Shown here one piece after another: positions 1,038-61,409 of a DNA stretch of 64,000 nt. The position numbers and the translations under genes were made by a program. Each line of letters opens with the position of its first letter. Positions within the stretch are counted from its first letter, which is position 1. Below the pieces are notes generated by a model. The model did not search any database and was not told the origin of the DNA. It saw only the letters and a program-made list of their open reading frames with translations. Source of the stretch: Candidatus Babeliales bacterium (lineage in GTDB: Bacteria > Babelota > Babeliae > Babelales > JANWKD01); NCBI GenBank assembly GCA_963762115.1, contig CAVXJH010000007.1, positions 95,635 through 159,634 on the forward strand, given 5' to 3'.

Positions 1038-1277
1038 ATGAAGAAATTCTTTTATCTCGGTTTTATTGTATTTTCTATGATTTCAAGCTCAAAAAGCAAT
1101 TGTATGTCTAAAGAAAATAAAGTGTCTCATGAAGAAGCAAGAACCGCCACGACAACACTTATTCGCTATTTTATGCAAAAACAAGAAAATAAACACATTA
1201 AGAACATGGTACGTGATGCCTATGCCATATCAAAAATAGGTCTAAAAGATGGCGAAAAGATTAAAGCTGCTCTCTGA
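1038..1277 (+). CDS. Small secreted protein (signal peptide followed by Met)
   Basis: MKKFFYLGFIVFSMISSSKSNC|MSK; AAGGA RBS upstream. Confidence 0.7.
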   Translation: MKKFFYLGFIVFSMISSSKSNCMSKENKVSHEEARTATTTLIRYFMQKQENKHIKNMVRDAYAISKIGLKDGEKIKAAL

Positions 1278-1311
1278 TTATATTTAATACTACCATGCTG
1301 CATCATAAAGA

Positions 1312-1352
1312 CTCTTCCAAAATAGTTTTTATTTTACTAGAGTAAAAATCAG
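1312..1352 (+). promoter_or_regulatory. Putative promoter, copy 2
   Basis: TTCCAA(1315-1320)-N17-TAGAGT(1338-1343). Confidence 0.6.
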
Positions 1353-1390
1353 TTCATCTAATAACCACTTATACTCTAAGGAGTGTTCTT

Positions 1391-2296
1391 ATGAAGAAGT
1401 TTCTCTATCTTAGCTTAACCGGCTTAATGGTTTTAAGCACAACAACACGTTGCATGGAACAAATTATTAAAGCCGATGAAGAAGCACAAAAAGATGGAAG
1501 TGTGCAAACAATAATCTTAGAATCAGAAAATGCATTAAAAGTACAGGGACCACAATTACCAGCAAAAAAAGAAGTGATTCAAGCGTTCTTGGAAGCCTAT
1601 GTTGTTGTCTCAACGATGGGCCGTTATGGCGTTGCATCATCAGAACCATTTGCAATAATGAAGGAATCATACGCCACCGTTAAGGCCATTAACAAAGGTG
1701 ATAAAGAAAAAACACGATTAGAATTATTTGATGGCTATTGCAGTGCTGATGAAGAATATTATGAAAAAGGACTTGACGACGAAGAAAAAACCGCTCAAAA
1801 AATTAAAGCTATTGACTCACTCGTAGCATTAAGATATCAATCAAAACTTAATGACAATCAAAAAAAACATGCCGCATTAATGCAAAGAAAAGAAGAACTA
1901 ACTAAAACTATTAAAGAATTACTCAATAAAAAAACCGCTATTCAAGAAAAATTGCGTGAAAAAGAAGAAGAAAAATCGCTTCTTGAAAAGGTTAACGCCA
2001 TGCATCATAACTCTAAAGAACAAGAAAACTCCTTACTTCGTTCGCGCAAAGAAACATTAACTGAAGAAATAAAAGCTATTGATGAACGCATTGCAAAACA
2101 CAAAGAAGAATCTAATGCTTTACTTGAAGGTGATGTAATGCAAAGCGTGGTTGCAGATGCTATAAAAGACCATTCCGATGTTGAAGCTGGTCTTTTAGAA
2201 AAAAAAGCAGAATTACAAGCAAAATTCGATAAAATTAATGCTGTTATTGAAAAGCTAGAAATACCAAAGACTGGTTGGTTTGGTAATTGGCTATAA
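1391..2296 (+). CDS. Secreted coiled-coil protein, candidate effector
   Basis: Signal peptide ...TTTRC|MEQ; long K/E-rich coiled coil; aromatic tail TGWFGNWL; AAGGAG RBS. Confidence 0.8.
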   Translation: MKKFLYLSLTGLMVLSTTTRCMEQIIKADEEAQKDGSVQTIILESENALKVQGPQLPAKKEVIQAFLEAYVVVSTMGRYGVASSEPFAIMKESYATVKAINKGDKEKTRLELFDGYCSADEEYYEKGLDDEEKTAQKIKAIDSLVALRYQSKLNDNQKKHAALMQRKEELTKTIKELLNKKTAIQEKLREKEEEKSLLEKVNAMHHNSKEQENSLLRSRKETLTEEIKAIDERIAKHKEESNALLEGDVMQSVVADAIKDHSDVEAGLLEKKAELQAKFDKINAVIEKLEIPKTGWFGNWL

Positions 2297-2318
2297 ATTA
2301 AACTATTAGAAAGTAATG

Positions 2319-2346
2319 AAGAGCCCATCAATTGATGGGCTCTTTT
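2319..2346 (+). terminator. Intrinsic terminator
   Basis: aagagcccatc-aatt-gatgggctctttt hairpin plus T tract. Confidence 0.8.
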
Positions 2347-2380
2347 ATTTGATATCATTCTTATCAATTCACAATCATAT

Positions 2381-2420
2381 CTTCCAAAAAAAATACTGTT
2401 GTACTATAGTAGGTGCAGTT
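2381..2420 (+). promoter_or_regulatory. Putative promoter, diverged copy 3
   Basis: TTCCAA(2382-2387)-N17-TATAGT(2405-2410). Confidence 0.55.
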
Positions 2421-2461
2421 TCAATAAACTATAACTATCACCATTAAGGAGTATTCTTGTT

Positions 2462-3811
2462 ATGAAGATTTTATATTCCACCCTTGCATTATTATTATAT
2501 ATAAACGCGCCATTATACTGCATGGAAGAAGAACAAAGGCAACTCGGCTTTCCATCTTCTAGTAATAATAATGATGCGGATATTTCTGAGTTCTTCTTAG
2601 CTGATGCTGCAGAACAAAGCGGCGTCCCTTTAAAACGAACGCATACTAAAGGCCCTTCAACAATTTTTATGGAACGTGTTGACACACACAATCATGAAGA
2701 AGCAAGCGACATAACAACAGGCTTTTTTGCAATGCCAACAAAAGAGGCGGGAAGCGATGAATACGCACAAGAAGACGTAGATAATGATCCAACTGAAAAA
2801 AAATCTACAATATTGATAACAAAAATATTTGAAGAACATGTAATTCCACAATCCAACGAAAATAACAATAATCAAGGACCACAAATGACTCCCTTGATTC
2901 CACAATTATTTGATAAAATCGAAGATCATAAACAAAAAAGCAATTTTTCTTGGACAAAGATACTTGAAATATTTAAAGCTGATGATGAACGACAAAAAGA
3001 ATTACTCGGTGATAATAATTTATCAGAAGTTATTTCCAGGTCACAGAACGAAACTTTAAAAGTATATTATTCTAGCCTTGCACATCTTGGAGAATTGACA
3101 GAACTTTTCTGGATCTTAAAAAGCAAATTATCAAAAATGCCTATTGAGGAAAAGAAACTGTCGGTTGAATTTGAGCATAAAAACTACATATATGCGGGCA
3201 TAATTAAAAGATGCAGTAACAATAAAGAAGAAGCAAAAGCACTCTTATTAGGAGTCGCTGATTATGAAAGTGACGAAGAAAAAATTATTGATGGCGATCT
3301 AGAAAATGATGAACCTGGTGTATATCGTTTATCAAAAAACATTTTGACCTATGCATTACCAGCTTTGACAAAACGAATAAATGAAAATCAAGCATCTGTT
3401 GATAGTTCTATACAAGAAAAAGAGCTCATAGATAATAAAATAGCTGTATTAGAAAAGCAAAAACAAGAAGTTTTAGCAAAATTAAATCAAGAACTCACCA
3501 ATAAACGACAATTAAAACAAGCAGAATTGATCATTAAACAAGAAAGAGAAACCCAAAGAGAATATTTATTAAGAAAACAAGCAACATTAAAAAAAGCTAT
3601 AGTTTTTCTAGAAGATAAAATTAATGATTTATCACATCAAAGCGAAGAAGCAGTACTACAACAAGCAAATGACAAAAAAATATTATTAAACAAACAAAAA
3701 AAAGCAACCGAAGAACAACTGAGCAAAACAAAATTAATATTAGCTGATCTTGAAAAAAATTTAAAAAATTTTGATACTCCAACTGGCTACAAGCTTTGGA
3801 GAGGAAAATAA
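2462..3811 (+). CDS. Secreted coiled-coil protein, probable paralogue of 1391..2296
   Basis: Signal peptide ...APLYC|MEE; acidic YESDEE motif, coiled coil, tail TGYKLWRGK. Confidence 0.8.
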   Translation: MKILYSTLALLLYINAPLYCMEEEQRQLGFPSSSNNNDADISEFFLADAAEQSGVPLKRTHTKGPSTIFMERVDTHNHEEASDITTGFFAMPTKEAGSDEYAQEDVDNDPTEKKSTILITKIFEEHVIPQSNENNNNQGPQMTPLIPQLFDKIEDHKQKSNFSWTKILEIFKADDERQKELLGDNNLSEVISRSQNETLKVYYSSLAHLGELTELFWILKSKLSKMPIEEKKLSVEFEHKNYIYAGIIKRCSNNKEEAKALLLGVADYESDEEKIIDGDLENDEPGVYRLSKNILTYALPALTKRINENQASVDSSIQEKELIDNKIAVLEKQKQEVLAKLNQELTNKRQLKQAELIIKQERETQREYLLRKQATLKKAIVFLEDKINDLSHQSEEAVLQQANDKKILLNKQKKATEEQLSKTKLILADLEKNLKNFDTPTGYKLWRGK

Positions 3812-6989: not shown

Positions 6990-7796
6990 ATGAAAAAACT
7001 CTTAAAATTTATTTTTATATCACTCTTAATGATGCATGCACCTTTATGGGGAATGGAAGCCCAATCTAAAAAAACTAATGAATTAATGCAAGAATGTTAT
7101 TGTGGTAGTATAGTTGCACAACATAGATTACGCTATCACATTGATGGGTACCACGCTATTGTTATAAAGGGGAAAAAAGAATATCTATGCCCTAAAGAAG
7201 GTTGTCAATTTAAACCCTTTTCTAAAACAACTCACGTCATTCATCATTTGATGGTAGAACACAAATTTTTTGATTTTACAAAACCTGGAAATCATGAACC
7301 TGAATCAAAACAAGAGGCACAAGCTAAAACAGATGAATCAGTCTTCAGCAGCGCTGATTTATGGAGTGCTGAAAACAATAACGAAGCAACCAACATTAAA
7401 AAATATTGCCAATGCGGAAAAAGATGGCCTCAAGATAAAAGAGAGGCACAACTTCAGCACATTAGAACACATCATTGTGAGATGACTAATTTTGTAAAAA
7501 CATTTATCTGTCCAAACTGCTCTTTTCCAGGTAAAACGGCAGAAGTTGTATTAGAACATAATAAAATCCATACTACCAATAAAAATCAAACTCCTCCCCC
7601 TTCTAAAAAAATCAAAAAAAAAGAATCAAAAAAATCTCAAAGGTTAATAACCATTTTGCCAAATGCACTCCAGCAAACTTCAGTCCCTTTTGAAAATGTT
7701 ACAAACCTACCAAATGACAATGATCAGAAACTCTTAGAGATTTTTTTAACCTATAATTCAGGAGAGCTTGAAGAATTATTTCCAATGATAAACTGA
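6990..7796 (+). CDS. Secreted C2H2 zinc-finger protein with NLS-like segment
   Basis: Signal ...APLWG|MEA; four C2H2-like units (e.g. CPKEGC..HLMVEH, CPNC..HNKIH); PPPSKKIKKK. Confidence 0.8.
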   Translation: MKKLLKFIFISLLMMHAPLWGMEAQSKKTNELMQECYCGSIVAQHRLRYHIDGYHAIVIKGKKEYLCPKEGCQFKPFSKTTHVIHHLMVEHKFFDFTKPGNHEPESKQEAQAKTDESVFSSADLWSAENNNEATNIKKYCQCGKRWPQDKREAQLQHIRTHHCEMTNFVKTFICPNCSFPGKTAEVVLEHNKIHTTNKNQTPPPSKKIKKKESKKSQRLITILPNALQQTSVPFENVTNLPNDNDQKLLEIFLTYNSGELEELFPMIN

Positions 7797-13331: not shown

Positions 13332-15083
13332 ATGTTAAACAAAAAACTACTTTTATCAATTATTTTTTCATGCCTCACTTATTCAGGCATGCAGGCTATG
13401 GAGGCTTTGTCATTGGAAGAACCTAAAGAAAATGAAGCACACGTTCTTAACGATAATGATATAGTCACTATTCAATTAACCTACAATTTTAAACAAGAAA
13501 AAGAATATGATAAAACAATGTATCAACCTAAAGATAATGACGATTATAACATCAATTACGAGGTAACAGTACCATATAAAATTATTAAAACATGTTCGTT
13601 ATTACGACGTGATATCTCTCATGAAAATACCATTATCACCATTCCTGCCACCGATATTTCTATAGAAATGTTTAAATTTATTTTAGATTTGCTCAATATA
13701 TATTCCGATGATCAATTAACAAATGAGATCAAAATACAAAAAATACACGAATTAATAAAAAACAATGAAGAAAAACTTTTTCAATTACTTGATGCAGCTA
13801 ATTATTTGAATTGTGAACCAATCTATAATGCAGCGAGTCATATTATGACACAAAAACTTGAAAGCTTAATTTTTGAAAAAAATAATTTGGCAGAAGCTCT
13901 TGCATTAGCAAAATACATCAAAAAGAAAACCAATCATTATTACAAAATATTTGAATATTTATGTGATACTTCAAAATATAAAACTGAAATCAAAGCAATT
14001 GTTAAATCAATACAAGCGTTGGAAGAAACTGAAATTATTAATTCAATATGCTTTTCTCCAGATAATAAAACACTTGCTTATACACGTATCCCAAACGATA
14101 CCGCCATAAAACTCTGGAACATTAGCAATGATGAACACTCATCAATGCCAAAAATAGATAATTTTAACATCGGGTCAATCAATTTTTCTCATGATGGCAC
14201 AAAAATCGCTTCAGGTTCTTGGAATGGCAACATAAAAATATGCGATGTAAATTCAGAAACCTGTTTAATCGATCTACAAGGACATACAACTTGGGTAACT
14301 TCAATATCTTTTTCTCATGATGATACTAAACTTGCATCTGCTTCTCATGATAACACCATAAAAGTATGGGATGCTAAAACGGGTGAATGCATATCTACTT
14401 TCCAAGAAAATGATCGAGTTCTCTCAGCCTGTTTTTCACCTAATAGCAAAATTCTTGCTTCAGCTTCCAAAAATTTTATAAAATTATGGGAAGTTTCATC
14501 GGGGAAACAGCTACAAATCCTTAATGGTCATAACAATGAAATTAGGAACATTTGTTTTTCCCCAGACGGCACAACAATTGCTTCATCTTCTCTAGATGCA
14601 ACGGTAAAAATATGGGATACATCTTCTGGAAATCTTTTAAAAACTTTAGAGGGCCACAAAAGATCCATACCTTCTGTTTGCTTTTCTCCTGATGGCACAA
14701 TAATTGCTTCCGGTTCTTTCGATAGAACAATAAAAATATGGGATGCGTCTTCTGGAAAATACTTACAAACGATCAAAGATACCGGCCAAGTTCGCGCCAT
14801 GTGCTTTTCTTCTGATGGCAAACTTGCTAAAGGATGTAATGAAAAAAATATACAGATTTTTACTTTTCATGATCTCAAGAAAGAGTTCAATCTTTCTACT
14901 TTACTATTGCTTGAATATTTGATGTATCATAAGGAACATAATTCATTACCAGCATTATCACAACTTGATCCATCCATGCAAGGATTATTCTTGTTGTTAC
15001 CAGAAGCATTCCAAAAAATGTTTACCGATATGCCTGCAACTAACGATGTTCCCACAACAAAGTCTAACTGCTTAGTTAGTTAA
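13332..15083 (+). CDS. Secreted Skp1/BTB-like + WD40-repeat protein with C-terminal CaaX (CLVS)
   Basis: Signal ...SGMQA|MEA; LFQLLDAANYLNCEPI; about 7 WD40 repeats (GH...FSPDG...ASGSFDRTIKIWD); ends KSNCLVS. Confidence 0.9.
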   Translation: MLNKKLLLSIIFSCLTYSGMQAMEALSLEEPKENEAHVLNDNDIVTIQLTYNFKQEKEYDKTMYQPKDNDDYNINYEVTVPYKIIKTCSLLRRDISHENTIITIPATDISIEMFKFILDLLNIYSDDQLTNEIKIQKIHELIKNNEEKLFQLLDAANYLNCEPIYNAASHIMTQKLESLIFEKNNLAEALALAKYIKKKTNHYYKIFEYLCDTSKYKTEIKAIVKSIQALEETEIINSICFSPDNKTLAYTRIPNDTAIKLWNISNDEHSSMPKIDNFNIGSINFSHDGTKIASGSWNGNIKICDVNSETCLIDLQGHTTWVTSISFSHDDTKLASASHDNTIKVWDAKTGECISTFQENDRVLSACFSPNSKILASASKNFIKLWEVSSGKQLQILNGHNNEIRNICFSPDGTTIASSSLDATVKIWDTSSGNLLKTLEGHKRSIPSVCFSPDGTIIASGSFDRTIKIWDASSGKYLQTIKDTGQVRAMCFSSDGKLAKGCNEKNIQIFTFHDLKKEFNLSTLLLLEYLMYHKEHNSLPALSQLDPSMQGLFLLLPEAFQKMFTDMPATNDVPTTKSNCLVS

Positions 15084-15294: not shown

Positions 15295-15636
15295 TTAAAA
15301 ATTTAGTTGTTCTTGTAACTTTAACCAATACTGTTCAAGTTTTTGATACATTACATGCTCTTTGTCTTTACGATTGCCAAACGATGTGCATTGAGTCGTT
15401 TCATTGTTAATAGGATAACTCATCCAACCAGAATACGATACAGATCCCTTTTCTTTATCTACACATTTACTAACAACAAGTTCTGCTCTTTTTTCTTCAT
15501 TTGTTTGAGTAAGAACTTCACGCACACATAATGTATCTTCATCAGTTTCTTTAGTTACCTTACCACCACATTCCATGGCTGATGCCGAAAAAAATAAACC
15601 TAAACTAATACTCAACATTGCACTATATAGTTTCAT
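15295..15636 (-). CDS. Small secreted protein, tandem paralogue 1
   Basis: MKLYSAMLSISLGLFFSASA|MECGGKVTK...E.LTQ...YSG...LE.YW..L. Confidence 0.85.
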   Translation of the reverse strand: MKLYSAMLSISLGLFFSASAMECGGKVTKETDEDTLCVREVLTQTNEEKRAELVVSKCVDKEKGSVSYSGWMSYPINNETTQCTSFGNRKDKEHVMYQKLEQYWLKLQEQLNF

Positions 15637-15673: not shown

Positions 15674-16033
15674 TTATTCTACTTGAGAGTTTAAATCGTC
15701 CCAAAGACTCTCAAGCTTTTTATGATTTTCGTCTGTCATTTCATTAAAATCACCTAAACACTTTTGCTTCATGATTGGCTCACCTTCACTCTCATCTTTT
15801 TCAATTTTATCATAAACCTCTACGCCAGAATATGCTGCAAATTTCGTCTCTTGATTAATTCTCTTAGTCACACAAAGATATGTCCCATCTTCAGTATTTT
15901 CTTGCGTAAGAATTTCATATACGTATGATGTATCTTCATCAATTGATTTAGTTACTTTACCACCACGATGCATAGCTGATGCCGAAAAAAATAAACCTAA
16001 ACTAATACCCAACATTGCACTATATAGTTTCAT
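15674..16033 (-). CDS. Small secreted protein, tandem paralogue 2
   Basis: MKLYSAMLGISLGLFFSASA|MHRGGKVTK; same motifs. Confidence 0.85.
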   Translation of the reverse strand: MKLYSAMLGISLGLFFSASAMHRGGKVTKSIDEDTSYVYEILTQENTEDGTYLCVTKRINQETKFAAYSGVEVYDKIEKDESEGEPIMKQKCLGDFNEMTDENHKKLESLWDDLNSQVE

Positions 16034-16272: not shown

Positions 16273-16641
16273 TTAAGATTTTATTTGAGAATTTAATTCT
16301 GACCAAAGAGTTTCAAGTCTTTTATAACCATCACTTGTTTTATCATCAAAATCGCCTAACCATGTTTGATTAATTCCAGACAAAATATCATATGTTGAAG
16401 TTTTTTCATCATAAAACAAATCGCCAATTATACCGGAATATGATAATGCTTTTGTTTCTTTATTTTCTCGTTTACTAATAAAAAGATACTTTTGTTCTTG
16501 GTCATTTTTTTGAGTTAAAGTTTCACGTATAAATTTCTTTTCATCTTGTATCTTCTTAGTTACTTCACCACCGCACGTCATGGCAGATGCCGAAAAAAAT
16601 GAACCTAAACTAATACCCAAAATTGCAATATATAACTTCAT
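16273..16641 (-). CDS. Small secreted protein, tandem paralogue 3
   Basis: MKLYIAILGISLGSFFSASA|MTCGGEVTK; same motifs. Confidence 0.85.
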   Translation of the reverse strand: MKLYIAILGISLGSFFSASAMTCGGEVTKKIQDEKKFIRETLTQKNDQEQKYLFISKRENKETKALSYSGIIGDLFYDEKTSTYDILSGINQTWLGDFDDKTSDGYKRLETLWSELNSQIKS

Positions 16642-21032: not shown

Positions 21033-29463
<8,431 letters not shown>

Positions 29464-33359: not shown

Positions 33360-33442
33360 TGGTGAGAGAAGGATTCGAACCTTCGAAGGTATAAACCAAC
33401 GGATTTACAGTCCGTCCCCTTTGACCGCTCGGGAACCTCACC
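33357..33442 (-). tRNA. tRNA-Tyr(GTA)
   Basis: acgga-ct-GTA-aa-tccgt; long variable arm; CCA end. Confidence 0.95.
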
Positions 33443-33520
33443 AATGAAATCAATGATATTGTTTTTCTCAAAGATTTCAACTATTTTATCAAAATTCTTG
33501 CAAATTTTATACTCTTTATT

Positions 33521-33959: not shown

Positions 33960-36170
33960 ATGACATGTACTAACAACAAATTCAAATATAGCATTCTATT
34001 GCTTTCTCTTTTCGCCACCCTTCATGGCACAGAACAGCAAACATCAATTTTTAAAACCGTTAAAGAACTTCATGTACCCTCACTCGATTTGCCATCAGAA
34101 ATTGCAAAACCAACAATAATTTCTGAAAAAGATAAAGCAAAGTTAACGTTACAAGTTAATCTTCTCACCTCTGATCAAATAATTCCTATGATTTATGACT
34201 TATGTGCAGAACACCTACAATCAGAAAATTACGCAAAAGCTAAAACTGATTCGACATTTTTATCAAAAATGGAACTTTTTGCTGGCGGTGAACATAAAAA
34301 AGATAGTCTTTTAAATAAAATTGATCATACCAAAACCAGTTTTGGCAAAGCACTTCTTGCTCTTCAATTAGCAGAGCCTATTCATGATGTTAACATTCTT
34401 TCCCTGCGTCAAGAATTAGTAAAAACGCTTATTAATGATCCAGCATTGATGCAGAAAATTGAGGAACAATTAACCGTAATGGCTGCCGCTGAACCTTATC
34501 TATTCTCCTACTTTGAACAAGAAAATTCAGTTAATGAAGAATTATTTAAAAAGGTCTATTTTAACGAATGGTTAAACTTTCTTAATACCAGTGCAACGGC
34601 TTTAGAAATAAGTACTCGAATTGGCAATGCTGGATCACTCTTTTTTGCAACATTGTTTCCAAACTATGGCATGTTATTAGCAACCGGCGTCAACTACGGG
34701 CTTGCACAAGAAAAGTTCGCAACGGATCAATGGCGCAGCAAAACCACCGGATATCCAGCCACAGTTCCTCAGCCAACTTTTGGCAAATCTTTTGTTAAAA
34801 CGGTTAAACAAATTCCAGATCTCATCAAAAGTGTTGATCCCCGCAAAAAAGCTTTTAAAGAAATATCATATACAGAATTAAACGATCAGCGCAAAGCAAC
34901 TTCTTATTATAATCCACAATATGAAGAAATCGTTCAAAAAATGCAACCTAAAACACTAGGCGATGTACTTCATTCTATGGATTATGAGGCATCACAAAGC
35001 CCTGAAGCAGCCAAAGCTATCAACGGATTAAAAATAACAATTGCAGGTGTCAGCGCCTTTGTTATTGCATCACAAGCATATTTAACATACACAGCAGTAA
35101 AAAACGAACTTTTAAAAAGAGATATTTCAAATTATTTACAAACAAAAATGATTGCCGTTGCTTCATATCTCAATGCGGCAAAAGAATTATATGAATTAGC
35201 ACAATTAAACCCTGTTTTATCAACAATTCCAGGATTACATCATATTGAAGCATTATTTAATCCAAATGCTCTGCACTCTTCTGATTTAAAAAGCTTGATT
35301 CGCCTGCTTGATCACAACACTTTCACCGGTGAAGCATCGATTGCATCACTAACAGGACGTGTTCTTGCTGCACATCAATTAATGAAAAAAGTTAAGCATG
35401 AATTAATACCTGCCTGCGCTGCAGCAAGCACCTTTGATGTCTATTTTTCAACAGCTAAACTATATACAAAATTTGAAAATCAACGTGTTCGCTATACCTT
35501 TGCAAACTATATTGTTGGCACTAATGCTCCTTATGCCAATCTAAAAAGATTCTGGAATCCTGGCGTTGATGCAAACATTGTAGTAGCAAATGATATTATC
35601 TTTGGTGTAGAACAACCAAACAATATCATTCTTACCGGGCCAAATACCGGTGGAAAATCAACGGTAATCAAAAGTGCATTGATTAACCTCTTGCTAGCTC
35701 AAACTATCGGCATTGCACCGTGTGATGAAATTACCTTTACTCTTTTTGCCGTTCTTAATTGCTATCTTAATATTACCGATGACCTTTCAGCGGGTGTTTC
35801 ACTCTTTAAGGCGGAAGTATTACGAGCAAAAGCATTAATAGAAGCAATCAGAAAACTAGAAGCTGGACAATTTAGCTTTACCATTATGGATGAAGTATTT
35901 AGCGGTACCTCACCAAAAGAAGGTGAAGAAGCAGCTTATATGTTCGCAAAAGAGCTTGGCATCATGCAAAGCAGCATCTGCACTATTGCAACACACTTTC
36001 CAAAGCTAACTGAACTTGAAGACATGAAAAAATTCAAAAACTATCAAGTAAAAGTCTGGAAAGATGAAAACAATAATTGGGTTCGTCCTTTCAAACTTGA
36101 AGAAGGAAAATCAACCTTAAATATCGCAATGGATCTTCTTGAAGAAGCAGGAATTTTTAGTCACGCATAA
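33960..36170 (+). CDS. MutS-family ATPase (domain V) with signal peptide
   Basis: Hydrophobic N-terminus; IDHTKTSFGK, GPNTGGKST, SLFKAE, IMDE, ATHF. Confidence 0.85.
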   Translation: MTCTNNKFKYSILLLSLFATLHGTEQQTSIFKTVKELHVPSLDLPSEIAKPTIISEKDKAKLTLQVNLLTSDQIIPMIYDLCAEHLQSENYAKAKTDSTFLSKMELFAGGEHKKDSLLNKIDHTKTSFGKALLALQLAEPIHDVNILSLRQELVKTLINDPALMQKIEEQLTVMAAAEPYLFSYFEQENSVNEELFKKVYFNEWLNFLNTSATALEISTRIGNAGSLFFATLFPNYGMLLATGVNYGLAQEKFATDQWRSKTTGYPATVPQPTFGKSFVKTVKQIPDLIKSVDPRKKAFKEISYTELNDQRKATSYYNPQYEEIVQKMQPKTLGDVLHSMDYEASQSPEAAKAINGLKITIAGVSAFVIASQAYLTYTAVKNELLKRDISNYLQTKMIAVASYLNAAKELYELAQLNPVLSTIPGLHHIEALFNPNALHSSDLKSLIRLLDHNTFTGEASIASLTGRVLAAHQLMKKVKHELIPACAAASTFDVYFSTAKLYTKFENQRVRYTFANYIVGTNAPYANLKRFWNPGVDANIVVANDIIFGVEQPNNIILTGPNTGGKSTVIKSALINLLLAQTIGIAPCDEITFTLFAVLNCYLNITDDLSAGVSLFKAEVLRAKALIEAIRKLEAGQFSFTIMDEVFSGTSPKEGEEAAYMFAKELGIMQSSICTIATHFPKLTELEDMKKFKNYQVKVWKDENNNWVRPFKLEEGKSTLNIAMDLLEEAGIFSHA

Positions 36171-41769: not shown

Positions 41770-42324
41770 TCATTGAACAATACATTTTTGATTAGCATTT
41801 TTCTTCTTTGCAGGCATAGACAATCCACCGATTTTTCCAAGCAATACATTAACAACGCCTTGATTATTACCAGCACAGGCAATTGCTAAAAACGTCAGTT
41901 CATCTTCTATAGTTCCCAAGTCAATATCATTTTCTAAAAGTAATTGTGCTGAATCTTCATGCCCCTCAGATACACACGAACATAACAATTTCTGCATAAT
42001 CATTTGTTTATGTTCAGGATGTATCAAAAATAAATATGCTTCAGTTGTTTGTCGAATAGCAGTAACACCGGTCTTTTGAAGGTCAAATGCACACATCGAT
42101 AATGCATTTTTTTCATATAACTCTTTTGCTTCAAGCAACGTTAAAAATTCAGGCTTAAATTTTTCAAAGTTTCCTGAAAAAGTATTAACTTGTTCAGAAG
42201 TTAACTCCGAAGCCAATAAGGCCATATAATAAGCCGATTTATTCAATTTTTTATACTCCATAGAAAAAAGTAACAACATAGGTAAGTTCAACAAAAAAAA
42301 GAATGGAAATATTTTTTTCTTCAT
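41770..42324 (-). CDS. Secreted ankyrin-like protein with polybasic CaaX tail
   Basis: Signal ...LLLFS|MEY; ankyrin-like units (EGHEDSAQLLLEN; TFLAIACAGNNQGVVNVLL); ends AKKKNANQKCIVQ. Confidence 0.8.
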   Translation of the reverse strand: MKKKIFPFFFLLNLPMLLLFSMEYKKLNKSAYYMALLASELTSEQVNTFSGNFEKFKPEFLTLLEAKELYEKNALSMCAFDLQKTGVTAIRQTTEAYLFLIHPEHKQMIMQKLLCSCVSEGHEDSAQLLLENDIDLGTIEDELTFLAIACAGNNQGVVNVLLGKIGGLSMPAKKKNANQKCIVQ

Positions 42325-42498: not shown

Positions 42499-42774
42499 AT
42501 GAATACATTAAATAAAATATTTTTCCTTATTGTAGGAACAATCAGTTTAAATGCTTTTGCAATGGAAAATGACGATAGAACACAATTAGAGTTTGCGCGA
42601 AGCTTGTTAAGAAGAAATAGATCTGAAGATCTTTTTCCTTTTCCTAAAATGACTAAAGAAGAATTAGAAGCTTTAGAAGATGATATCACCGCAGAATTAG
42701 CTAAAATCGACGACATGTTCATTTTTCCAGAAGACAAGGACAAGCAAGACAATAACGACGAAAAAAAATCATAA
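42499..42774 (+). CDS. Small acidic secreted protein
   Basis: Signal ...SLNAFA|MEN; AAGGA RBS; TTGACA-N16-TACAAT at 42413-42440. Confidence 0.8.
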   Translation: MNTLNKIFFLIVGTISLNAFAMENDDRTQLEFARSLLRRNRSEDLFPFPKMTKEELEALEDDITAELAKIDDMFIFPEDKDKQDNNDEKKS

Positions 42775-46368: not shown

Positions 46369-47427
46369 CTATTTTAACCACTTCTTAACTCTTTCAATTT
46401 TTTCAATCTGCTCAAATGCAAAAATGAGAGTTTTATCATAGCCAGGAATAATTGATTCAACAACAGTGTCAATAAAATATTCAATTGAAAAAACTAGCGC
46501 AGCGTCACTGGCAAAAAAATTGCGAATATTTTGTAAGTATTTATTATACTGCTCTTCCGGCATAGTTTTCAAAAAATAATATAACTCATCCAATGTTGCA
46601 AATTTTTCTCGAGCAATATAACAATTTGATGGAATATGCGCAGCGATATTTGCAGCACCAAGGTAAACAGGAACGCATCCCGCAACAAATGAATCAAAAA
46701 TCTTTTCGGTGATATAACCGCCATTATTACGCATGTTTTCGTAGCATATTGAAAATTTATATTGCTTCAAATAAGGAACTTTATGATCTACAAGACCTTT
46801 ATACGTAGAAAAAAAACGTGCATCCCAGCCGACACCATAAAAATCAAAATCTTCTGGAGCATTTTGTTCAAAATAATTAATGGCTCCTAAACGCTGAGAA
46901 TATAATTCAAGCGGATGTAACGAATTTTTATTGCATGAAATAAGCGTACACAATTTTTTTTGAGCGAATGGAACGACATCATCAATCATAGATAGCGCAG
47001 GTTGCGGATAATAGAATTTATGATATTTTTTCCCATCAACCAACCCATCAAACATAGTAAATACCCTGCCAAAAGCTTGATGCAAAATTCTATAATACGT
47101 ATGCGATAAAACGGTTGGCGGCTCCCACAAAAAAAGTATCCATTTTGCAACGTCATGATTAAATTCACTCGTATATGGTATTGTGTCAAATACAATTGTC
47201 TGTACCAATTCATTACATGCTTGCTCCATTGATACTACCTTGAATTCATATCCCAATGTATCTAATGCATCTCTTAAATCACATAAAGCTTTCATACAAT
47301 TATCACGTGCGTGAACATTAAAAAAACTGTTAGGATTTTCGCCTCCTGAAAGTGGCACTAAATTTATAGTAATAGCACTCATGGAATGCATCATAAAAAA
47401 CAAGAAAAATAGCTTATTTATGGTCAT
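46369..47427 (-). CDS. GT10 fucosyltransferase-like glycosyltransferase with signal peptide
   Basis: YKFSICYEN...GYITEKIFD...VPVYLG; WEPP; hydrophobic N-terminus. Confidence 0.85.
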   Translation of the reverse strand: MTINKLFFLFFMMHSMSAITINLVPLSGGENPNSFFNVHARDNCMKALCDLRDALDTLGYEFKVVSMEQACNELVQTIVFDTIPYTSEFNHDVAKWILFLWEPPTVLSHTYYRILHQAFGRVFTMFDGLVDGKKYHKFYYPQPALSMIDDVVPFAQKKLCTLISCNKNSLHPLELYSQRLGAINYFEQNAPEDFDFYGVGWDARFFSTYKGLVDHKVPYLKQYKFSICYENMRNNGGYITEKIFDSFVAGCVPVYLGAANIAAHIPSNCYIAREKFATLDELYYFLKTMPEEQYNKYLQNIRNFFASDAALVFSIEYFIDTVVESIIPGYDKTLIFAFEQIEKIERVKKWLK

Positions 47428-47435
47428 ACTTACAT

Positions 47436-49097
47436 CTATCTCTTTATAAATGATACTTGATATTCTGCATGCACAGATCGATTTATAATGGCACAAAAGG
47501 GGTTATAGTCTATTTTGAAGCCCTTATTAAATAAATCTAACAAGTACTCTGTTTCAATGTACATATGCGCATTATTGCGTTCTGTTTGAACAACATTCAA
47601 GGGAATATTAATTATCTTTGAACTTTGATAACAAAGACCGACTTTTTCATAATCAACAAATTCAGGAATAAACCAATTTCCCTCAAGGTTACTTGGGTTG
47701 GTATAATGCAGTTGATGCAATGCTTTAATAATAGTTTCTTTTTTATATAACGTCATATCAACACTATTTGGATAACGCCAATCATAAGAACCATCTTTGA
47801 AAGACCAAGCAAATATTTGATCGCCCACAGGAATTAATTTTGGAAGAGTATGAGATTTATTTGCCATATAACAATAAGTAATATTGGTACCCAATCTCAG
47901 AAAAAAGCCATATGCATGAGTCTTATCAAGAGCATGAATACAATCATTAATATCACAAAAATCTTTTACCATAATATCATCAACGGCAAAAATAATATGA
48001 TCATTTTTTCCACCTTCAACGATCTCTATGGTAAGCTTTTTAAAATCTTCCTGCGGAGAAATTTTAGATTGTTCAACAAAAACAACCGAAGGAAAACTTT
48101 TTCTCACCTCTCCATAGGCATCTGCGTACTCCTGATTATCAGCTCGCCCTAAAACAGTGACGGTCCCAAGATTCTTTACATACGCAAAAAGTGATTCTAG
48201 AAAACAATATAATTGCATTGGACGATTATAAGAAAAAACTAATACATCAGCTTTTGATGGTTCGACTTGATACTTTTTTATTGGTAAAGAACCCAAGGGT
48301 GTATATCTTTTTTTATTACGTAAAAAATTGAAATAATACAACTGTTGCTGCAAGCGAACTTTATAATCATTGAGATCATTGGCTGTATTATAGACATATA
48401 AAACGTCTTTAATGAATCTAACATGCTTACCGGCCATTTCCAAAATTGGCCAGAAAAATGCAATATCGCCCGCTGTTGGTAAAAATGCACCATTATCAAT
48501 TAAATCTTGTAATAAAATTTGTTTAAACAAACACGCTCTAAAAGTTCTCAAGTGTGTTGTTGGCAATGGTAATGCAAGATATCGCCAAAGGTTTTCATCA
48601 ACAATATTTTGACCAACCGGCCTACAATGACCAAGCGTATTGTTGGGATATTCCACATATTGACCATATGTAACCCAAACATTATCATCGGCGTATTCTT
48701 CATTAATACGATTTAAAACATTTTGATGGGCAAACCAATCGTCACCGTCAAGATGTACAATGATAACGTCATCTTTACAACGATGCACCGCATCCCAATG
48801 ATTTGCAAGTGCACCTTTGCGTACTTCATTATAAATTAACGCAACTCGATGTTCCGTGTCATATAATTCTAGTAAATATTGTATGTATTCATATGATCCA
48901 TCCGTTGAGCAATCAACATAATATAACACGGTAAAATTTTTATAATTTTGTTGCAAAATTGATATAATATTACGCTCGGCCCATTCTCGCGTATTATATG
49001 AAGGGACCACAACAACAATTTCTTGCTCTTCAAAAGCAAAAACATGATTCATAAAAAAAATCAAAACAAAATAACATAAATAAAATAATTTTTTCAT
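47436..49097 (-). CDS. Two-domain GT-A glycosyltransferase (GT2 plus second domain) with signal peptide
   Basis: VVVPSYN, DCSTD, LDGDD; second domain VFSYNRPMQL, FAVDD. Confidence 0.85.
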   Translation of the reverse strand: MKKLFYLCYFVLIFFMNHVFAFEEQEIVVVVPSYNTREWAERNIISILQQNYKNFTVLYYVDCSTDGSYEYIQYLLELYDTEHRVALIYNEVRKGALANHWDAVHRCKDDVIIVHLDGDDWFAHQNVLNRINEEYADDNVWVTYGQYVEYPNNTLGHCRPVGQNIVDENLWRYLALPLPTTHLRTFRACLFKQILLQDLIDNGAFLPTAGDIAFFWPILEMAGKHVRFIKDVLYVYNTANDLNDYKVRLQQQLYYFNFLRNKKRYTPLGSLPIKKYQVEPSKADVLVFSYNRPMQLYCFLESLFAYVKNLGTVTVLGRADNQEYADAYGEVRKSFPSVVFVEQSKISPQEDFKKLTIEIVEGGKNDHIIFAVDDIMVKDFCDINDCIHALDKTHAYGFFLRLGTNITYCYMANKSHTLPKLIPVGDQIFAWSFKDGSYDWRYPNSVDMTLYKKETIIKALHQLHYTNPSNLEGNWFIPEFVDYEKVGLCYQSSKIINIPLNVVQTERNNAHMYIETEYLLDLFNKGFKIDYNPFCAIINRSVHAEYQVSFIKR

Positions 49098-49118
49098 TAC
49101 TTCCCAACAGCCCAATTG

Positions 49119-50003
49119 TTAATGAACCATAGCCTCTGACTCAAGCCAACTACCAGCCCAATGATGCACAGCATAAGCTTCAGGTTTATCCCAAACATCT
49201 CGAGGCATGCCCTTTTGATTATATCCACACGGATAAAAATATGATGCTGGCAAAGCAATATCACGCAATCCAGATTTACCTGCAATGGCTAAAAAAGCGA
49301 GGGAAAAATGAATTGGCCCCGTTGCAACAATAATCTGCTGAATATCTTTTTTAGTTGGTAATTTTTCAATAGAATAATTCAAAATAGGATGATGTGGTAT
49401 CGACCCAATCAAGCCTATTCCCAATTGAGCCATATTAGTGTCGAGCGGTTGAATACCAATATAAAAATGGTAATAGTGATTGAAATCATCAATAGGTTTT
49501 AAGCATTCATAATCAACATCGAGATACACACCACCATATTGCTTTAATATTTCATAGCGCCAAATATCCGATTTTTGTCCATAATTTTTTGCAGCATCAA
49601 ATAGTTCTCTGTTTATAAAAGGAAACGTATCAAGATCTGCTTCAGTCCACACATAATAATCCCAATCTGGATGCATAGCCAACCATGATTGTTGATAGGC
49701 ACGATATTTTTCGGGAAGCTCATGACGTTCAGGATATTGACCCCCTAACCAAATCCAATGAAATTTCTTTTCAATTAAAGGAATTGGGGAAGGCGTTAGT
49801 TTTTTTGGTTCAAAGTGATGATACAAAAGTTCAAAAAAATCGAATAGTGATTTACATAACGGTTTTTCCAAAAGCTCTCGATAATGAACTGTTTGCATTG
49901 ATTCATGAAAATCAACCGAAGGAATAAGATTAACCTGATAATCAGCATTAGAATAAAAAATATGATTTATTAAAAGAAAAAAAAATAAGCTTTTTTTATA
50001 CAT
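49119..50003 (-). CDS. GT32/Och1-like glycosyltransferase with signal peptide
   Basis: HWIWLG, SDIWRYEIL..YGGVYLDVD, TGP, HHWAGSW. Confidence 0.88.
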   Translation of the reverse strand: MYKKSLFFFLLINHIFYSNADYQVNLIPSVDFHESMQTVHYRELLEKPLCKSLFDFFELLYHHFEPKKLTPSPIPLIEKKFHWIWLGGQYPERHELPEKYRAYQQSWLAMHPDWDYYVWTEADLDTFPFINRELFDAAKNYGQKSDIWRYEILKQYGGVYLDVDYECLKPIDDFNHYYHFYIGIQPLDTNMAQLGIGLIGSIPHHPILNYSIEKLPTKKDIQQIIVATGPIHFSLAFLAIAGKSGLRDIALPASYFYPCGYNQKGMPRDVWDKPEAYAVHHWAGSWLESEAMVH

Positions 50004-50735
50004 TTACACTCCTTCAGCATTAGTACAAAATCGTTTATTTCTAAAAATAAGATCATGTTCCAATCGAGCCAAAATAATAAAATTTCTCTCAAGAAGATAA
50101 TTAACCAATTCTATATCATCATAATTATCTTCAACACAAATAACATCTATTCGATCAAGATTAATTGATTGTATAATAGCATCTTCACCACCTTCAGTAT
50201 CTATACTCAAAATATCAACATGATCGATACTACATGCATCCAATAATGAATCAAGTTCGTAGCACATCACCGGGATAACTTCATATGAATCTTGGTTCTG
50301 ATTAACTTCATACTCAATGCGAGAAACATGGCGTGGATCATATTTTGAAGTTAAACCACTCAACATTTCACATGCACCTTTAATTTCTAAAAATTGATCT
50401 GCACCTTCTTTATCAGAAATACACCCTTGAATGCAAATGCAATTCGGTCTATTTTCCTTTAATGCAGCGAATGCTCGTGGTAACGGTTCAATACAAATAC
50501 ATTTCCAACCAAGTTGCTCAAAAAATAATGAATTACTAAATTTAACGCCATCATTTGCACCAATATCCACCATAACGCCATCATTTTTGTAGGGAAAAAT
50601 ATTTTTATGCATATATTCATCTTGGCCAACTTGACTATAATATTTTTCAATATGCCCATCATAGGCATAGCATGACGAATTATGCAAAGCAAACAATCCA
50701 AGGAAAAAACTCATTTTTTTTGAAAGTGCATTCAT
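50004..50735 (-). CDS. FkbM family methyltransferase with signal peptide
   Basis: YYSQVGQD, VDIGANDG, CIEP, SIDTEG. Confidence 0.88.
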   Translation of the reverse strand: MNALSKKMSFFLGLFALHNSSCYAYDGHIEKYYSQVGQDEYMHKNIFPYKNDGVMVDIGANDGVKFSNSLFFEQLGWKCICIEPLPRAFAALKENRPNCICIQGCISDKEGADQFLEIKGACEMLSGLTSKYDPRHVSRIEYEVNQNQDSYEVIPVMCYELDSLLDACSIDHVDILSIDTEGGEDAIIQSINLDRIDVICVEDNYDDIELVNYLLERNFIILARLEHDLIFRNKRFCTNAEGV

Positions 50736-56942: not shown

Positions 56943-58487
<1,545 letters not shown>

Positions 58488-58655: not shown

Positions 58656-58683
58656 ATTATACATGTATTATATGCTAAGTCAA
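58656..58683 (-). promoter_or_regulatory. rRNA operon promoter
   Basis: TTGACT-N16-TATAAT with an upstream A-tract (UP-like). Confidence 0.7.
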
Positions 58684-58757
58684 CACTTTTTTTATTTTTT
58701 TTTAAAAAAACTTTTTTGACCATAAAAAAAAGGCTTATTTTATCACTTTTTTGTGAT

Positions 58758-59327
58758 CTATATCAGCTCTTTATTTACTATCGATTCAAGCTCCTGGAGA
58801 GCCTTTTCAAAGATGTCATTACATACAACATACTTAAAAAAATTTTTTTTCGATTTTTCTTGAATTTCTTTTTGTGCAAGCAAAATTCTTTTATTTATTT
58901 GCTCTAAATTTTCACTTTTTCTTAATAATAATCTTTTCTTTAATATCTCTATAGTGGGGACTGAAATCCAAATCAATATCGCTTCTGAAAAAAGAGTTGC
59001 TAGGGCTTGAGCCCCTTGGCTATCCAGAATCATCAAAAACGAACTTCCCCCCTCTAATAAGGAAACTATATTTTTAGGGGAGCCATAATAATTGCCGTAG
59101 GCCAAACTCCATTCAAGAAAAAAATCTTCTTCTATTTTTTGCTCAAACTGATCAATTGATAAAAAATGGTAATCTTCTCCATCAACATCGCCGAGCCTTG
59201 GTATTTTAGTTGTATAGGTTATTACACGCGACAACACATGGCTTTGTCCAATTCGCTCGATAAGCGCTGTCACCAATGAAGTTTTACCCGCCCCTGAAGG
59301 TGCGGCAATAATAAATAATTTACCCAT
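58758..59327 (-). CDS. gmk: Guanylate kinase
   Basis: APSGAGKTSL, TYTTKIPRLGDVDGEDYHF, YGNYYGS. Confidence 0.95.
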   Translation of the reverse strand: MGKLFIIAAPSGAGKTSLVTALIERIGQSHVLSRVITYTTKIPRLGDVDGEDYHFLSIDQFEQKIEEDFFLEWSLAYGNYYGSPKNIVSLLEGGSSFLMILDSQGAQALATLFSEAILIWISVPTIEILKKRLLLRKSENLEQINKRILLAQKEIQEKSKKNFFKYVVCNDIFEKALQELESIVNKELI

Positions 59328-59637
59328 AAAGTATTCAGAATTCCTTCCCAACTTCAATAGCTTACTACTATTTTAAGTAATATTTTATATTTGTCAAGAA
59401 TATAAAATTATGTTTTTTTATTTTTTTCCTAGATATTAATTATTCCAATAAAAACATGCAATTGAAACATTAATTGAATTATACCTTATTATATATACAA
59501 CAGAAAAATTATCACCATCAATTGAAAAAAGAGTGTATGCATATACTCTTTTTTATGCCAAAAAAACCATTTCTCTAGCTACAGAACTCATTACGATGGT
59601 ATACTTATCATACTTATTCGCACTAAAGGAATTATAT

Positions 59638-60726
59638 ATGCTAATTGATGACTTAAAAGATAAACTTAAATCGGTTGAACCTGATTTAATGGTGATACAA
59701 CAATATTGGAATAACGCACACCTAGAAGATGAGTTTCAAAACTTAACAACTATCAGCAAACAAGAAGATTTTTGGCAGAATGCACAACAGGCAGAAATCA
59801 GCAAAGAACTACAGCGCATTAAACTTCAACGTGATCATTATCTTCATACAATAACTTCACACAAAGAACTTTATGAACTCATTGATCTCTTTGCTACTGA
59901 TGAAAGCGAGTTACAAAAAATTCAAAATGATGTTTTTGAATTATGTCGCAGTATAAAAAAATTTAAAATTGATCTTCTTCTGAACGATCCACAAGATAAT
60001 GCCAATTGTTTTTTAACCATCAATTCTGGCGCTGGCGGAACAGAATCTCAAGACTGGGCAGAAATATTATTGCGCATGTATGTTCGTTTTTGTGAACGAG
60101 AAAAGCTCAATGCTCATATTCTTGATTATCAAGTGGGCGAAGGTGCTGGCATAAAATCAGCAACAGTATTTATCAAAGGCAAAAAAGCATATGGGCTCTT
60201 AAAAGGTGAACAAGGAGTTCATCGTCTTGTGCGCATTTCACCCTTCGATGCCAGCAAGCGGCGCCATACTTCTTTTGCTGCAGCAACCATTAACCCTGAA
60301 GTTGCCGATGTTGCCATAACAATTGACCCTAAAGATTTAAGGATCGACACCTATCGCGCAGGTGGTGCTGGCGGTCAACACGTTAACAAGACGGATTCTG
60401 CTGTACGCATTACCCACTTACCAACAAACATTGTTGTACAATGCCAAAATGAACGCTCACAATTACAAAACAAAGAAACTGCCATGAAAATGCTTATGGC
60501 AAAACTTGTTCAAAAACAAAAAGATGAAGAACTTGCAAAAGCAGCATCAATTCAAAAACAAAAAATTGAGTGGGGCTCACAAATTCGCTCCTATGTTTTG
60601 CATCCGTATAAAATGGTGAAGGATCACCGCACTGATTATGAATCGCCACAACCAGACCTTGTCCTTGATGGTGATATCATGCCATTCATTGAAGCATTCT
60701 TAATTGCACAAGGCGCACAAGCATAA
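59638..60726 (+). CDS. prfB: Peptide chain release factor 2 (no programmed frameshift)
   Basis: GAGGTESQDW, SPF anticodon mimic, GGQ, WGSQIRSY; AAGGA RBS before ATG 59638. Confidence 0.96.
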   Translation: MLIDDLKDKLKSVEPDLMVIQQYWNNAHLEDEFQNLTTISKQEDFWQNAQQAEISKELQRIKLQRDHYLHTITSHKELYELIDLFATDESELQKIQNDVFELCRSIKKFKIDLLLNDPQDNANCFLTINSGAGGTESQDWAEILLRMYVRFCEREKLNAHILDYQVGEGAGIKSATVFIKGKKAYGLLKGEQGVHRLVRISPFDASKRRHTSFAAATINPEVADVAITIDPKDLRIDTYRAGGAGGQHVNKTDSAVRITHLPTNIVVQCQNERSQLQNKETAMKMLMAKLVQKQKDEELAKAASIQKQKIEWGSQIRSYVLHPYKMVKDHRTDYESPQPDLVLDGDIMPFIEAFLIAQGAQA

Positions 60727-60735
60727 TATTCTTAA

Positions 60736-60785
60736 ATTAATAAAGAAAAAGCCTCATCGAGTGATGAGGCTTTTTCTTTATTAAT
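60736..60785. terminator. Bidirectional terminator
   Basis: attaataaagaaaaagcctcatc-gagt-gatgaggctttttctttattaat. Confidence 0.85.
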
Positions 60786-60794
60786 TTAAGAATA

Positions 60795-61409
60795 TTATGG
60801 AAGAATAATTGAATGCAATGTATTACGAGCATCTTTTAATGCCTGCATTCTTTTTTGCTCGAGAGCTTTTTGACCTGGTGTTTCAATAGTAATTGCCGGT
60901 GTTGAAAGTTTTAATGCTGCATCAGCAGGCTTTAAATCCAAAGCTTTTTTATTAATACGTTTAAAATCGTTTACATCTTGAGGCTTTAAAGTAAGCAAAG
61001 TACCCTTAAGCGTCATAATGGCAGGAGCTAAGTCAGCTATTGCGGCTTCAATATCAAGCAATAACGGTTGTATATCCGCTACCTTTAATGTTTGAGCTGC
61101 ACCGCCAAATTGCTTTATCTTTAACGCTGCCATAGTTTCTTGAAGATTTAACGCAATATCATATAATTCTTTTAAAACTTCAAAATTTTTATCAGCTGGT
61201 TTTAAATTTTTAAATTCTACTGAAGTCAAATCATAAAAACCTGATTGCGGCGCTGGCGGCAATGATCCTAGACTAGTTCCTGAACCATTTTTATGCATCG
61301 CCGGACCTGGGCCGTGTTGAATATTTACTGGCTTTGGCGCCATTGCAAAAATTGATAAGTTGCCCATCAAAACAAGGGCAACAACTGTTAAAAATAACAT
61401 TTTTTTCAT
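60795..61409 (-). CDS. Secreted hypothetical protein
   Basis: Signal ...NLSIFA|MAP; Pro/Gly-rich N-terminal region; internal repeat LKPAD/LKPQD/LKVAD. Confidence 0.8.
   Translation of the reverse strand: MKKMLFLTVVALVLMGNLSIFAMAPKPVNIQHGPGPAMHKNGSGTSLGSLPPAPQSGFYDLTSVEFKNLKPADKNFEVLKELYDIALNLQETMAALKIKQFGGAAQTLKVADIQPLLLDIEAAIADLAPAIMTLKGTLLTLKPQDVNDFKRINKKALDLKPADAALKLSTPAITIETPGQKALEQKRMQALKDARNTLHSIILP

Follow-up and report, generated by a model that had tools for sequence, protein, structure and literature searches.

Methionine behind the predicted signal-peptide cleavage site is a genome-wide trait of effector-like proteins in a Candidatus Babeliales bacterium

We found that methionine stands directly after the (-3,-1) signal-peptidase motif in 195 of 474 signal-peptide-like proteins, from 143 families, of a Ca. 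Babeliales genome (Dependentiae/TM6; a bacterial parasite of protists; G000). This +1 Met trait is real and genome-wide. About a third of called genes look exported, and about 40% of the predicted exported proteins, mostly effector-like ones, carry it. Genes and signal peptides were called with our own scripts and heuristic, not SignalP, and cleavage sites are predicted; the heuristic finds signals of n-h-c layout whose -3 and -1 residues are small, as in Sec/signal peptidase I substrates, but overlooks GTG starts and wrongly admits some membrane anchors and cytoplasmic proteins. Chance is excluded as the source of the pattern: 192 of the 292 Met at positions 18-28 come after a (-3,-1) motif, whereas for any other single residue the share is 3-19% (odds ratio 12.6, a count in which paralogues are not independent), and with one protein per family +1 Met is still present in 134 of 369 families. 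When Met and the +2 residue were masked, family-wise cross-validation recovered the Met site in 153 of 195 proteins. We discarded an EM model of the cleavage site, trained on proteins without the Met, because it settled on the hydrophobic core. The +1 residues of the genome (n=381) include 175 Met, 13 Ala, 11 Ser and 10 Gln. The Met class makes up 151 of the 326 proteins with no Pfam label; Cys content and length did not differ between Met and non-Met classes, and an ESM Atlas search with one N-terminal 40-mer gave no usable match.

The first-pass annotation had listed 11 such motifs in the window (the whole 64-kb stretch of DNA analysed), and all are present at the open reading frames it named. 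On the forward strand (arrow, predicted cut; then Met codon) they lie in a 79-residue exported protein at 1038..1277 (SNC↓MS, 1104-1106), the weakest case, with a polar c-region; a 301-residue K/E-rich exported protein with no Pfam match at 1391..2296 (TRC↓ME, 1454-1456); a 449-residue exported protein at 2462..3811 (LYC↓ME, 2522-2524); a 268-residue Cys/His-rich protein bearing the basic patch KKIKKK at 6990..7796 (LWG↓ME, 7053-7055); a 583-residue WD40 protein at 13332..15083 (MQA↓ME, 13398-13400), with the C-terminal CaaX box CLVS (15069-15080); and a 91-residue acidic protein at 42499..42774 (AFA↓ME, 42562-42564). The reverse strand carries three small paralogues at 15295..15636 (ASA↓ME, 15576-15574), 15674..16033 (ASA↓MH, 15973-15971) and 16273..16641 (ASA↓MT, 16581-16579), a 184-residue weak-ankyrin protein at 41770..42324 (LFS↓ME, 42261-42259) that ends in a basic patch and the CaaX box CIVQ (41773-41784), and a 204-residue protein at 60795..61409 (IFA↓MA, 61343-61341), where an alternative cut would leave Pro at +1.

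Met is residue 21-23 in all 11 proteins, and an AGGA/GAGG-like element, weaker at 6990, precedes the first ATG of each gene. Ten of the motifs obey the strict (-3,-1) rule; that at 13332, with Met at -3, obeys only the relaxed one. A rule-based predictor blind to Met placed the cut directly before it in 7 of the 10 proteins scored; for 1391, 13332 and 60795 it chose another site, and 1038 had been filtered out beforehand. The earlier family labels fared unevenly: WD40 stands, ankyrin at 41770 is weak (E 1.7e-4, below the cut-off), and C2H2 at 6990 fits a regex pattern and no Pfam model. A close homologue of the WD40 protein, P0015, retains LQA↓ME; in the homologue search 26 of 120 matches were signal-peptide-like, and +1 Met was seen only in the window protein and one close homologue. 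The matches of that search were mostly generic WD40 proteins. The exported proteins said to lack the Met indeed lack it at the motif: the MutS-like protein (33960..36170, forward strand; LHG↓TE) and the GT10, GT2, DXD glycosyltransferase and FkbM methyltransferase proteins on the reverse strand at 46369..50735 (46369, 47436, 49119, 50004). So do 51121, most likely cut after MYA, and 51762, where Gln precedes the Met.

The trait is bound to protein class. The annotation proposed that +1 Met marks an effector class, enriched over housekeeping proteins, and this was borne out: strict +1 Met occurs in 22 of 31 eukaryote-like-domain proteins, 8 of 58 enzymes and 3 of 33 envelope proteins (p 4e-7 for the first versus the last; all three envelope cases look like mis-set sites). 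By eye, the ankyrin family has it in 16 of 19 members and a beta-helix-containing family in 0 of 13. The envelope proteins show a flat +1 spectrum, with Glu, Asp, Gln, Lys, Leu, Phe and Tyr starts common. It is rather improbable that Babeliales LepB, or one of two LepB paralogues, simply prefers Met at P1'; the genome has two tandem LepB genes, and Leu, unusually common at -3, points to an atypical LepB, but such a preference sits badly with the flat envelope spectrum, with +1 Met in single-LepB genomes (6 of 17 in G001) and with one lepB copy at 47 of 54 lepB loci. LepB copy number did not track the trait.

The Met also behaves as a selected residue. Between same-genus orthologues the +1 residue is kept in 21 of 28 Met pairs (median identity 38%) but in only 11 of 71 non-Met pairs (median identity 56%); flanking residues drift while the Met stays, and none of the seven Met losses is to Ala or Ser. 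This persistence is one of several points against +1 Met as the fossil start codon of older genes fused to signal cassettes, an unlikely reading that the annotation had offered as its alternative. For a small number of enzymes and DnaJ proteins, the Met does lie within 5-11 residues of the domain start (beta-eliminating lyase, DnaJ). However, Glu is residue 2 in 6 of 241 ordinary genes against 107 of 192 proteins after +1 Met, which makes a relic start unlikely, a relic Shine-Dalgarno was found in 1 of 204 cases, and cytoplasmic-type enzymes with an added signal are mostly Met-less (8 of 58 with Met). As a maintaining force the fossil start is largely refuted, although it may explain the origin of some cases.

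It is very improbable that the ATG is used as a second translation start that yields a cytoplasmic isoform, or as a Kozak-type start for host ribosomes. A↓ME does yield GCN ATG G, a Kozak-like context; purine-initial Ser codons before Met, however, number 10 of 40 against 265 of 852 elsewhere, which shows no Kozak bias, and GTG or TTG does not stand in, Leu or Val at motif sites being followed by Glu in just 8 of 124. A Shine-Dalgarno of at least 4 nt precedes 104 of 204 first ATGs but 1 of 204 internal ATGs, so an internal start, which would have undone the original proposal, is unlikely. On the Shine-Dalgarno, Ser codon and residue-2 Glu counts we rejected the Kozak, internal-start and relic-start readings.

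Several Met proteins resemble effectors acting in the host cytosol. Host-prenylated bacterial effectors, which carry a C-terminal CaaX box and frequently a basic patch, are a known precedent. At least 11 signal-peptide-plus-Met proteins, among them 41770 and 13332, have such a eukaryotic box at the C-terminus; their prenylation is predicted. CaaX ends occur in 8 of 218 Met proteins against 0.16 expected, with three further such proteins missed by the heuristic. The comparison with non-Met signal-peptide proteins (3 of 256) is marginal (p 0.12; 0.049 with a basic patch), and at other Babeliales loci the enrichment is absent (5 of 128 Met versus 6 of 341), while in G074 all four CaaX proteins are Met-type.

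The residue after the Met is biased as well. E, D, N or Q stands at +2 in 155 of 195 Met proteins against 38 of 89 non-Met proteins, and hydrophobic residues in 10 of 195 against 19 of 89 (p 8e-5), as avoidance of Met-hydrophobic degrons would predict. NatB acts on ME-, MD-, MN- and MQ- starts. PMC10611716 calls ME- NatB-type and shows that unacetylated ME- and AI- peptides do not pull down UBR4, KCMF1 or UBR2, in contrast to MI, ML, MY and MF. Since ME- escapes UBR4/UBR2 binding in the unacetylated state, the Met-Glu signature noted in the first-pass annotation can be explained without NatB acetylation. In the eukaryotic N-terminal code (PMC10611716, PMC8037982), degrons include Met-hydrophobic starts as well as Glu, Asp, Gln, Lys, Phe and the like.

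As the best explanation, to which we give about an even chance, +1 Met (mostly Met-Glu) is selected as an N-terminus that eukaryotic N-degron ligases ignore, aiding survival in the host cytosol. The protein would be exported by Sec and cleaved by LepB before the Met, as the (-3,-1) motif predicts, and would cross the outer membrane probably through GspD/GspE/GspF-type machinery, the only secretion system found. CaaX boxes, ankyrin, WD40, RING, Skp1 and DnaJ domains and basic patches suggest arrival in the host cytosol. There, by the established human and yeast N-degron rules, which may not be those of the protist host, a free Met with an acidic or amide residue would be too bulky for host MetAP removal and unbound by Arg/N-degron recognins, while Glu, Asp, Gln, Lys, Leu, Phe, Tyr or Met-hydrophobic starts would be degrons; NatB acetylation by the host is possible but not required. 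Babela massiliensis grows inside a vacuole (PMC4378268), so a type II system (T2SS) alone fails to explain arrival in the cytosol. Some of the eukaryote-like-domain (7 of 31) and CaaX (three) proteins that lack +1 Met begin with a residue predicted to be a degron (His, Glu, Gln, Tyr, Asn). Free exchange of Met for Ala or Ser would be expected were every neutral start good enough; both are rare in this genome and no loss goes to either, which fits a specific reader better.

The rarity of that exchange also fits a tentative alternative in which the Met-(Glu/Gln/Asp/Asn) at the mature N-terminus would act as a linear sorting tag that the bacterium reads in a second export step, at one of its two GspD-type channels or a vacuole-membrane translocon. 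With about a third of genes apparently exported, sorting would be needed, and a fold-based T2SS signal would hardly cover the 143 unrelated families sharing the tag. Two secretins, two GspE-type ATPases and two GspF are encoded in the genome as a putative T2SS-type export route (the best matches, GspD and GspE, fall below NCBIfam cut-offs; there are GspF-family matches too), and a search for T3SS, T4SS and T6SS markers gave none. At least two secretins occur in 17 of 17 Babeliales, and lepB lies with a split gspE in a conserved cluster at about 45 of 56 loci. However, the tandem secretin pair is also present in two other Babeliales families (G040, G041) whose ankyrins mostly start with Ala, no consensus extends beyond +2, no candidate receptor was identified, and Met-less ankyrin and CaaX proteins coexist in the same genome. 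Host protection and a sorting tag, both raised at the outset, are still live, and the sequence data do not tell them apart.

The G040 and G041 ankyrins, which mostly use Ala, and the 7 of 31 Met-less eukaryote-like proteins of G000 show that +1 Met is not universal. Apparent +1 Met sites in G040 ankyrins were rejected, the Met lying at -3. The ankyrins of these two families start with M/A/S/T/G/V/P/C in 29 of 36 cases against 16 of 39 in control bacteria, and plasmid proteins of Ca. Paracaedimonas, a Holosporales amoeba symbiont, have Ser at +1 in 21 of 36. We counted both for host protection, as convergence on other N-degron-neutral starts; since Ala is the ordinary bacterial default at +1, the G040/G041 evidence is weak. 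In control bacteria +1 Met was found in 0 of 43 (Fusobacterium) and 0 of 12 (E. coli) proteins. Four further Babeliales families (f5, f7, f12, f13), with 3-10 signal-peptide-like proteins per genome, are too sparsely sampled to call; a Met-class AAA protein had orthologues in 4 of 81 genomes order-wide, and a short ankyrin protein gave no tblastn match on plasmids. A broader, tentative idea is that intracellular bacteria which export effectors by Sec write a destination code into the residues following the signal peptide: Ser in the Holosporales symbiont, and in Babeliales either Met-Glu (many members) or Ala. In Babeliales it would serve both as a linear T2SS-type or vacuole-translocon export tag and as host camouflage. 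If true, it would be a first linear signal for T2SS substrates and would allow effectors of uncultured symbionts to be predicted from sequence alone.

Babeliales devote a large genome share to exported proteins of no assigned function. Using sequence only, the +1 Met rule nominates about 200 proteins of this genome as candidate host-cytosol effectors, most with no Pfam match. It makes testable how Sec/T2SS substrates are picked for host delivery, and whether the N-degron pathways of the host are a defence to which the N-termini of bacterial effectors have adapted.

In the PEXEL pathway of Plasmodium, a vacuole-dwelling parasite, cleavage exposes an Ac-xE/Q/D N-terminus, a proposed sorting signal, on unrelated effectors. 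The proteolytic exposure of x-E/Q/D is alike; here it is the bacterial Sec/LepB system, with no RxL motif or plasmepsin, and a putative tag role. Some phytoplasma SVM signal peptides may be followed by Met. PMC8026896, which does not mention methionine, describes SVM (PF12113) as Sec signals on effectors released into host cells; in that case the signal cassettes are homologous and the bacterium lacks a cell wall. Known Babeliales secretomes likewise have Sec signals on ankyrin and other eukaryote-like proteins, and no secretion system besides a T2SS (PMC4378268, PMC6561590); their main texts do not mention methionine, and the B. massiliensis supplement has S↓M(E/Q/D), unremarked, in 6 of the 10 ankyrin rows viewed. 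As this cultured species shows the trait, a direct test is feasible. The Arg/N-degron and NatB/NatC code shares NatB-type starts and the escape of ME- from UBR binding, but concerns the host's initiator Met, whereas here a bacterial signal peptidase exposes an internal one. In the literature searched we found no +1 Met rule, the closest case being the Bacteroidetes Q-rule, under which signal peptidase I substrates share a lineage-specific +1 residue that may make the mature protein more stable, as has been proposed; it covers about 71% of substrates whatever the compartment and needs a periplasmic glutaminyl cyclase (PMC5837995, PMC10653852). In G000, Gln holds +1 in 10 of 381 proteins against 175 for Met. 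A limited search, which turned up two M24 peptidases and one exported, AAC(6')-like GNAT, found no bacterial modifying enzyme here. In contrast to the Q-rule, Met comes with a +2 bias and only effector-like proteins carry it (3 of 33 envelope proteins), with selection probably exerted by the host.

The source genome of the window, which it carries as C7:95635-159634, is 1.53 Mb long and 95% complete. Its LepB has 54 relatives in a sequence search, at 45-70% identity; the named ones are Ca. Babeliales, Babeliaceae, Dependentiae or TM6, and the others are labelled only 'bacterium' or 'Pseudomonadota'. Babeliales parasitize protists and are obligately intracellular (PMC6561590, PMC4378268). ORF calling yielded 1507 ORFs, and a rule-based heuristic (basic n-region and hydrophobic core, no later TM segment) retained 474 signal-peptide-like proteins. 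In the window, rpoC (21033-25181) is fragmented into ORFs 24747-25181, 24548-24859, 24280-24564 and 21033-24293, probably through long-read frameshift errors. The stretch from nusG to the tRNA cluster (32246-33521) is without a long ORF, and the sequence from 32246 onward resembles a short minus-strand secE.

Met is enriched directly behind the predicted cut. At positions 19-23 of the 474 proteins it makes up 7-9% of residues against a background of 1.8%, and it stays at 1-3% at the same positions of 752 control proteins. The (-3,-1) motif of small residues precedes 192 of the 292 Met at positions 18-28, and 3-19% of each other residue there. A Met-blind rule placed Met at +1 in 127 of 294 confident sites and at +2 in 3. 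A matrix with Met and +2 masked recovered 153/195 Met sites in family-wise cross-validation, which is consistency rather than proof, because the same motif defined its training set. Strict Met (Met directly after the motif) occurs in 195/474 proteins from 143 BLAST families, or in 134/369 with one protein per family; 195 is too low a count, because several clear cases miss the strict rule. All 11 motifs named in the first-pass annotation were found, with Met at residues 21-23, and the genome-wide enrichment at +1 that it proposed to look for is present at sites predicted by the heuristic. Thirteen Met-class paralogues with near-identical signal peptides form a tandem array (contig C6:349268-361600), with no Pfam match among those scanned. 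The commonest -3 residue is Leu (45/127 Met and 40/167 non-Met sites), the canonical motif being A-x-A.

The same annotation had allowed that the Met might be merely an internal translation start. This was rejected: a Shine-Dalgarno sequence of at least 4 nt precedes 104/204 first ATGs but 1/204 internal ones, the Ser codons before the Met show no Kozak bias, and Glu follows 107/192 internal Met, as compared with 6/241 ordinary genes having Glu as residue 2.

The suggested contrast between protein classes also held. A Pfam scan covered 422/474 proteins (first 450-500 residues), with classes assigned by hand; the class test omits 26 paralogues of the Met class and a further 26 proteins from outside the covered regions. 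Ankyrin, WD40, DnaJ, RING, Skp1 and C2H2 proteins had strict Met in 22/31 cases (of the other 9, 2 had Met at a relaxed site and 7 lacked it), versus 3/33 envelope proteins and 8/58 enzymes; the envelope set includes several anchors or lipoproteins, which are not SPase I substrates. Strict Met is also present in 151/326 of the rest, among which are the paralogues left unscanned and some false positives that are cytoplasmic. Signal peptides are found as well on many enzymes that normally stay in the cytoplasm, nearly all of them without Met: a MutS-like protein (window 33960-36170), glutamine synthetase, glucokinase, histone deacetylase, a DOT1-like methyltransferase and a MavL-like macrodomain. 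Basic NLS-like patches are somewhat more frequent in strict-Met proteins (45/195) than in the others (39/279; p 0.014).

The +1 Met is conserved. A genome of the same genus (800 kb sampled) had strict Met in 99/269, and the 126 reciprocal best-hit pairs comprised 32 in which both proteins had Met, 80 in which both lacked it and 14 discordant ones. Scored at predicted sites with Met masked, +1 was identical in 21/28 Met pairs versus 11/71 others, even though Met pairs were more diverged (identity 38% versus 56%); -2 was conserved in just 5/28. At the lepB loci of 54 Babeliales, Met occupied 32/139 predicted sites. Counts for individual genomes were 6/17 (G001), 6/27 (G005), 3/15 (G048), 3/28 (G049), 2/11 (G019), 1/8 (G007), 1/7 (G024), 1/24 (G040) and 1/25 (G041), with no Met in G008, G010, G043, G045 and G047, which were thinly sampled. 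In Babela massiliensis, S|M(E/Q/D) appears in 6/10 ankyrin rows (rows 11-20 of 126, supplement 9; PMC4378268). Controls had 0/43 (Fusobacterium, 400 kb), 0/12 (E. coli, 50 kb) and 0/8 (Cardinium plasmid). In small samples, with a predictor trained on the source genome, ankyrin proteins of G040 (5/12) and G041 (13/24) prefer Ala at +1, and Ca. Paracaedimonas plasmid proteins have Ser in 21/36, versus Ser/Thr in 5/39 controls (p 7e-5), a possible separate Holosporales 'S-rule' at predicted sites. Ala is at predicted +1 in 0/36 on the Ca. Paracaedimonas acanthamoebae plasmids (L246, L249, L250, L257-L260).

The sequences themselves show the pattern, its bias towards one class of proteins and its conservation. 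From these we infer that cleavage occurs before Met and that the proteins would reach the cytosol, where the exposed start may be what is selected. The +2 residue behind strict Met is E/D/N/Q in 155/195 and hydrophobic in 10/195. This spectrum matches starts that human N-recognins ignore: UBR4, KCMF1 and UBR2 are reported to bind MI, ML, MY and MF peptides, and unacetylated ME- and AI- poorly (PMC10611716). Glu exposed by signal peptidase is a known degron when the protein arrives in the cytosol (PMC8037982). The differing choice among intracellular lineages (Met, Ala, Ser) fits a host-side filter, and we give protection from host N-degron ligases about an even chance of explaining +1 Met. Met-to-Ala/Ser swaps are near absent in this Babeliales family, which fits a bacterial reader; a sorting tag recognized by the export machine, compatible with host protection, is a less likely explanation.

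No match to FHIPEP, VirB4 or VipB was found in the 95% complete genome, which has two GspD-like secretins, two GspE-like ATPases (one split) and two GspF-family genes. Each of the 17 Babeliales genomes examined carries two or more secretins, including a close pair; here two large GspD-like secretins lie in tandem, flanking PilM-like genes (locus L027:12001-19797, contig C6). The split gspE clusters with lepB in about 45/56 loci. The conserved lepB cluster (also at L043-L096) contains the split gspE, HU, a rhodanese lipoprotein, an M23 peptidase and TPR/Bat-like genes; in the source genome lepB is duplicated (L001/L007, C3:453700-459700). Of the Met proteins, 8/218 end in a CaaX box (0.16 expected), as do 3/256 of the signal-peptide proteins without Met; among the 920 genes that remain there are 5, of which 3 are missed signal-plus-Met proteins; other Babeliales loci showed no association with Met (5/128 versus 6/341). 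At least 14 exported proteins bear such boxes (CIIS, CIVQ, CLVS, CAVQ, CLIS), often behind a basic patch, and two lie in the window (15069-15080 and 41773-41784). The terms 'CaaX' and 'prenyl' are absent from the main text on Babela (PMC4378268).

The first-pass annotation was unsure whether the pattern was unpublished; the literature searched, which leaves out most subscription journals, yielded no description of a +1 Met in Babeliales. Babeliales effector-like proteins carry a real, selected and apparently unreported N-terminal code. The nearest known kind is the Q-rule (PMC5837995, PMC10653852), from which the Babeliales code differs in its residue, in its restriction to a class of proteins and in its probable agent.
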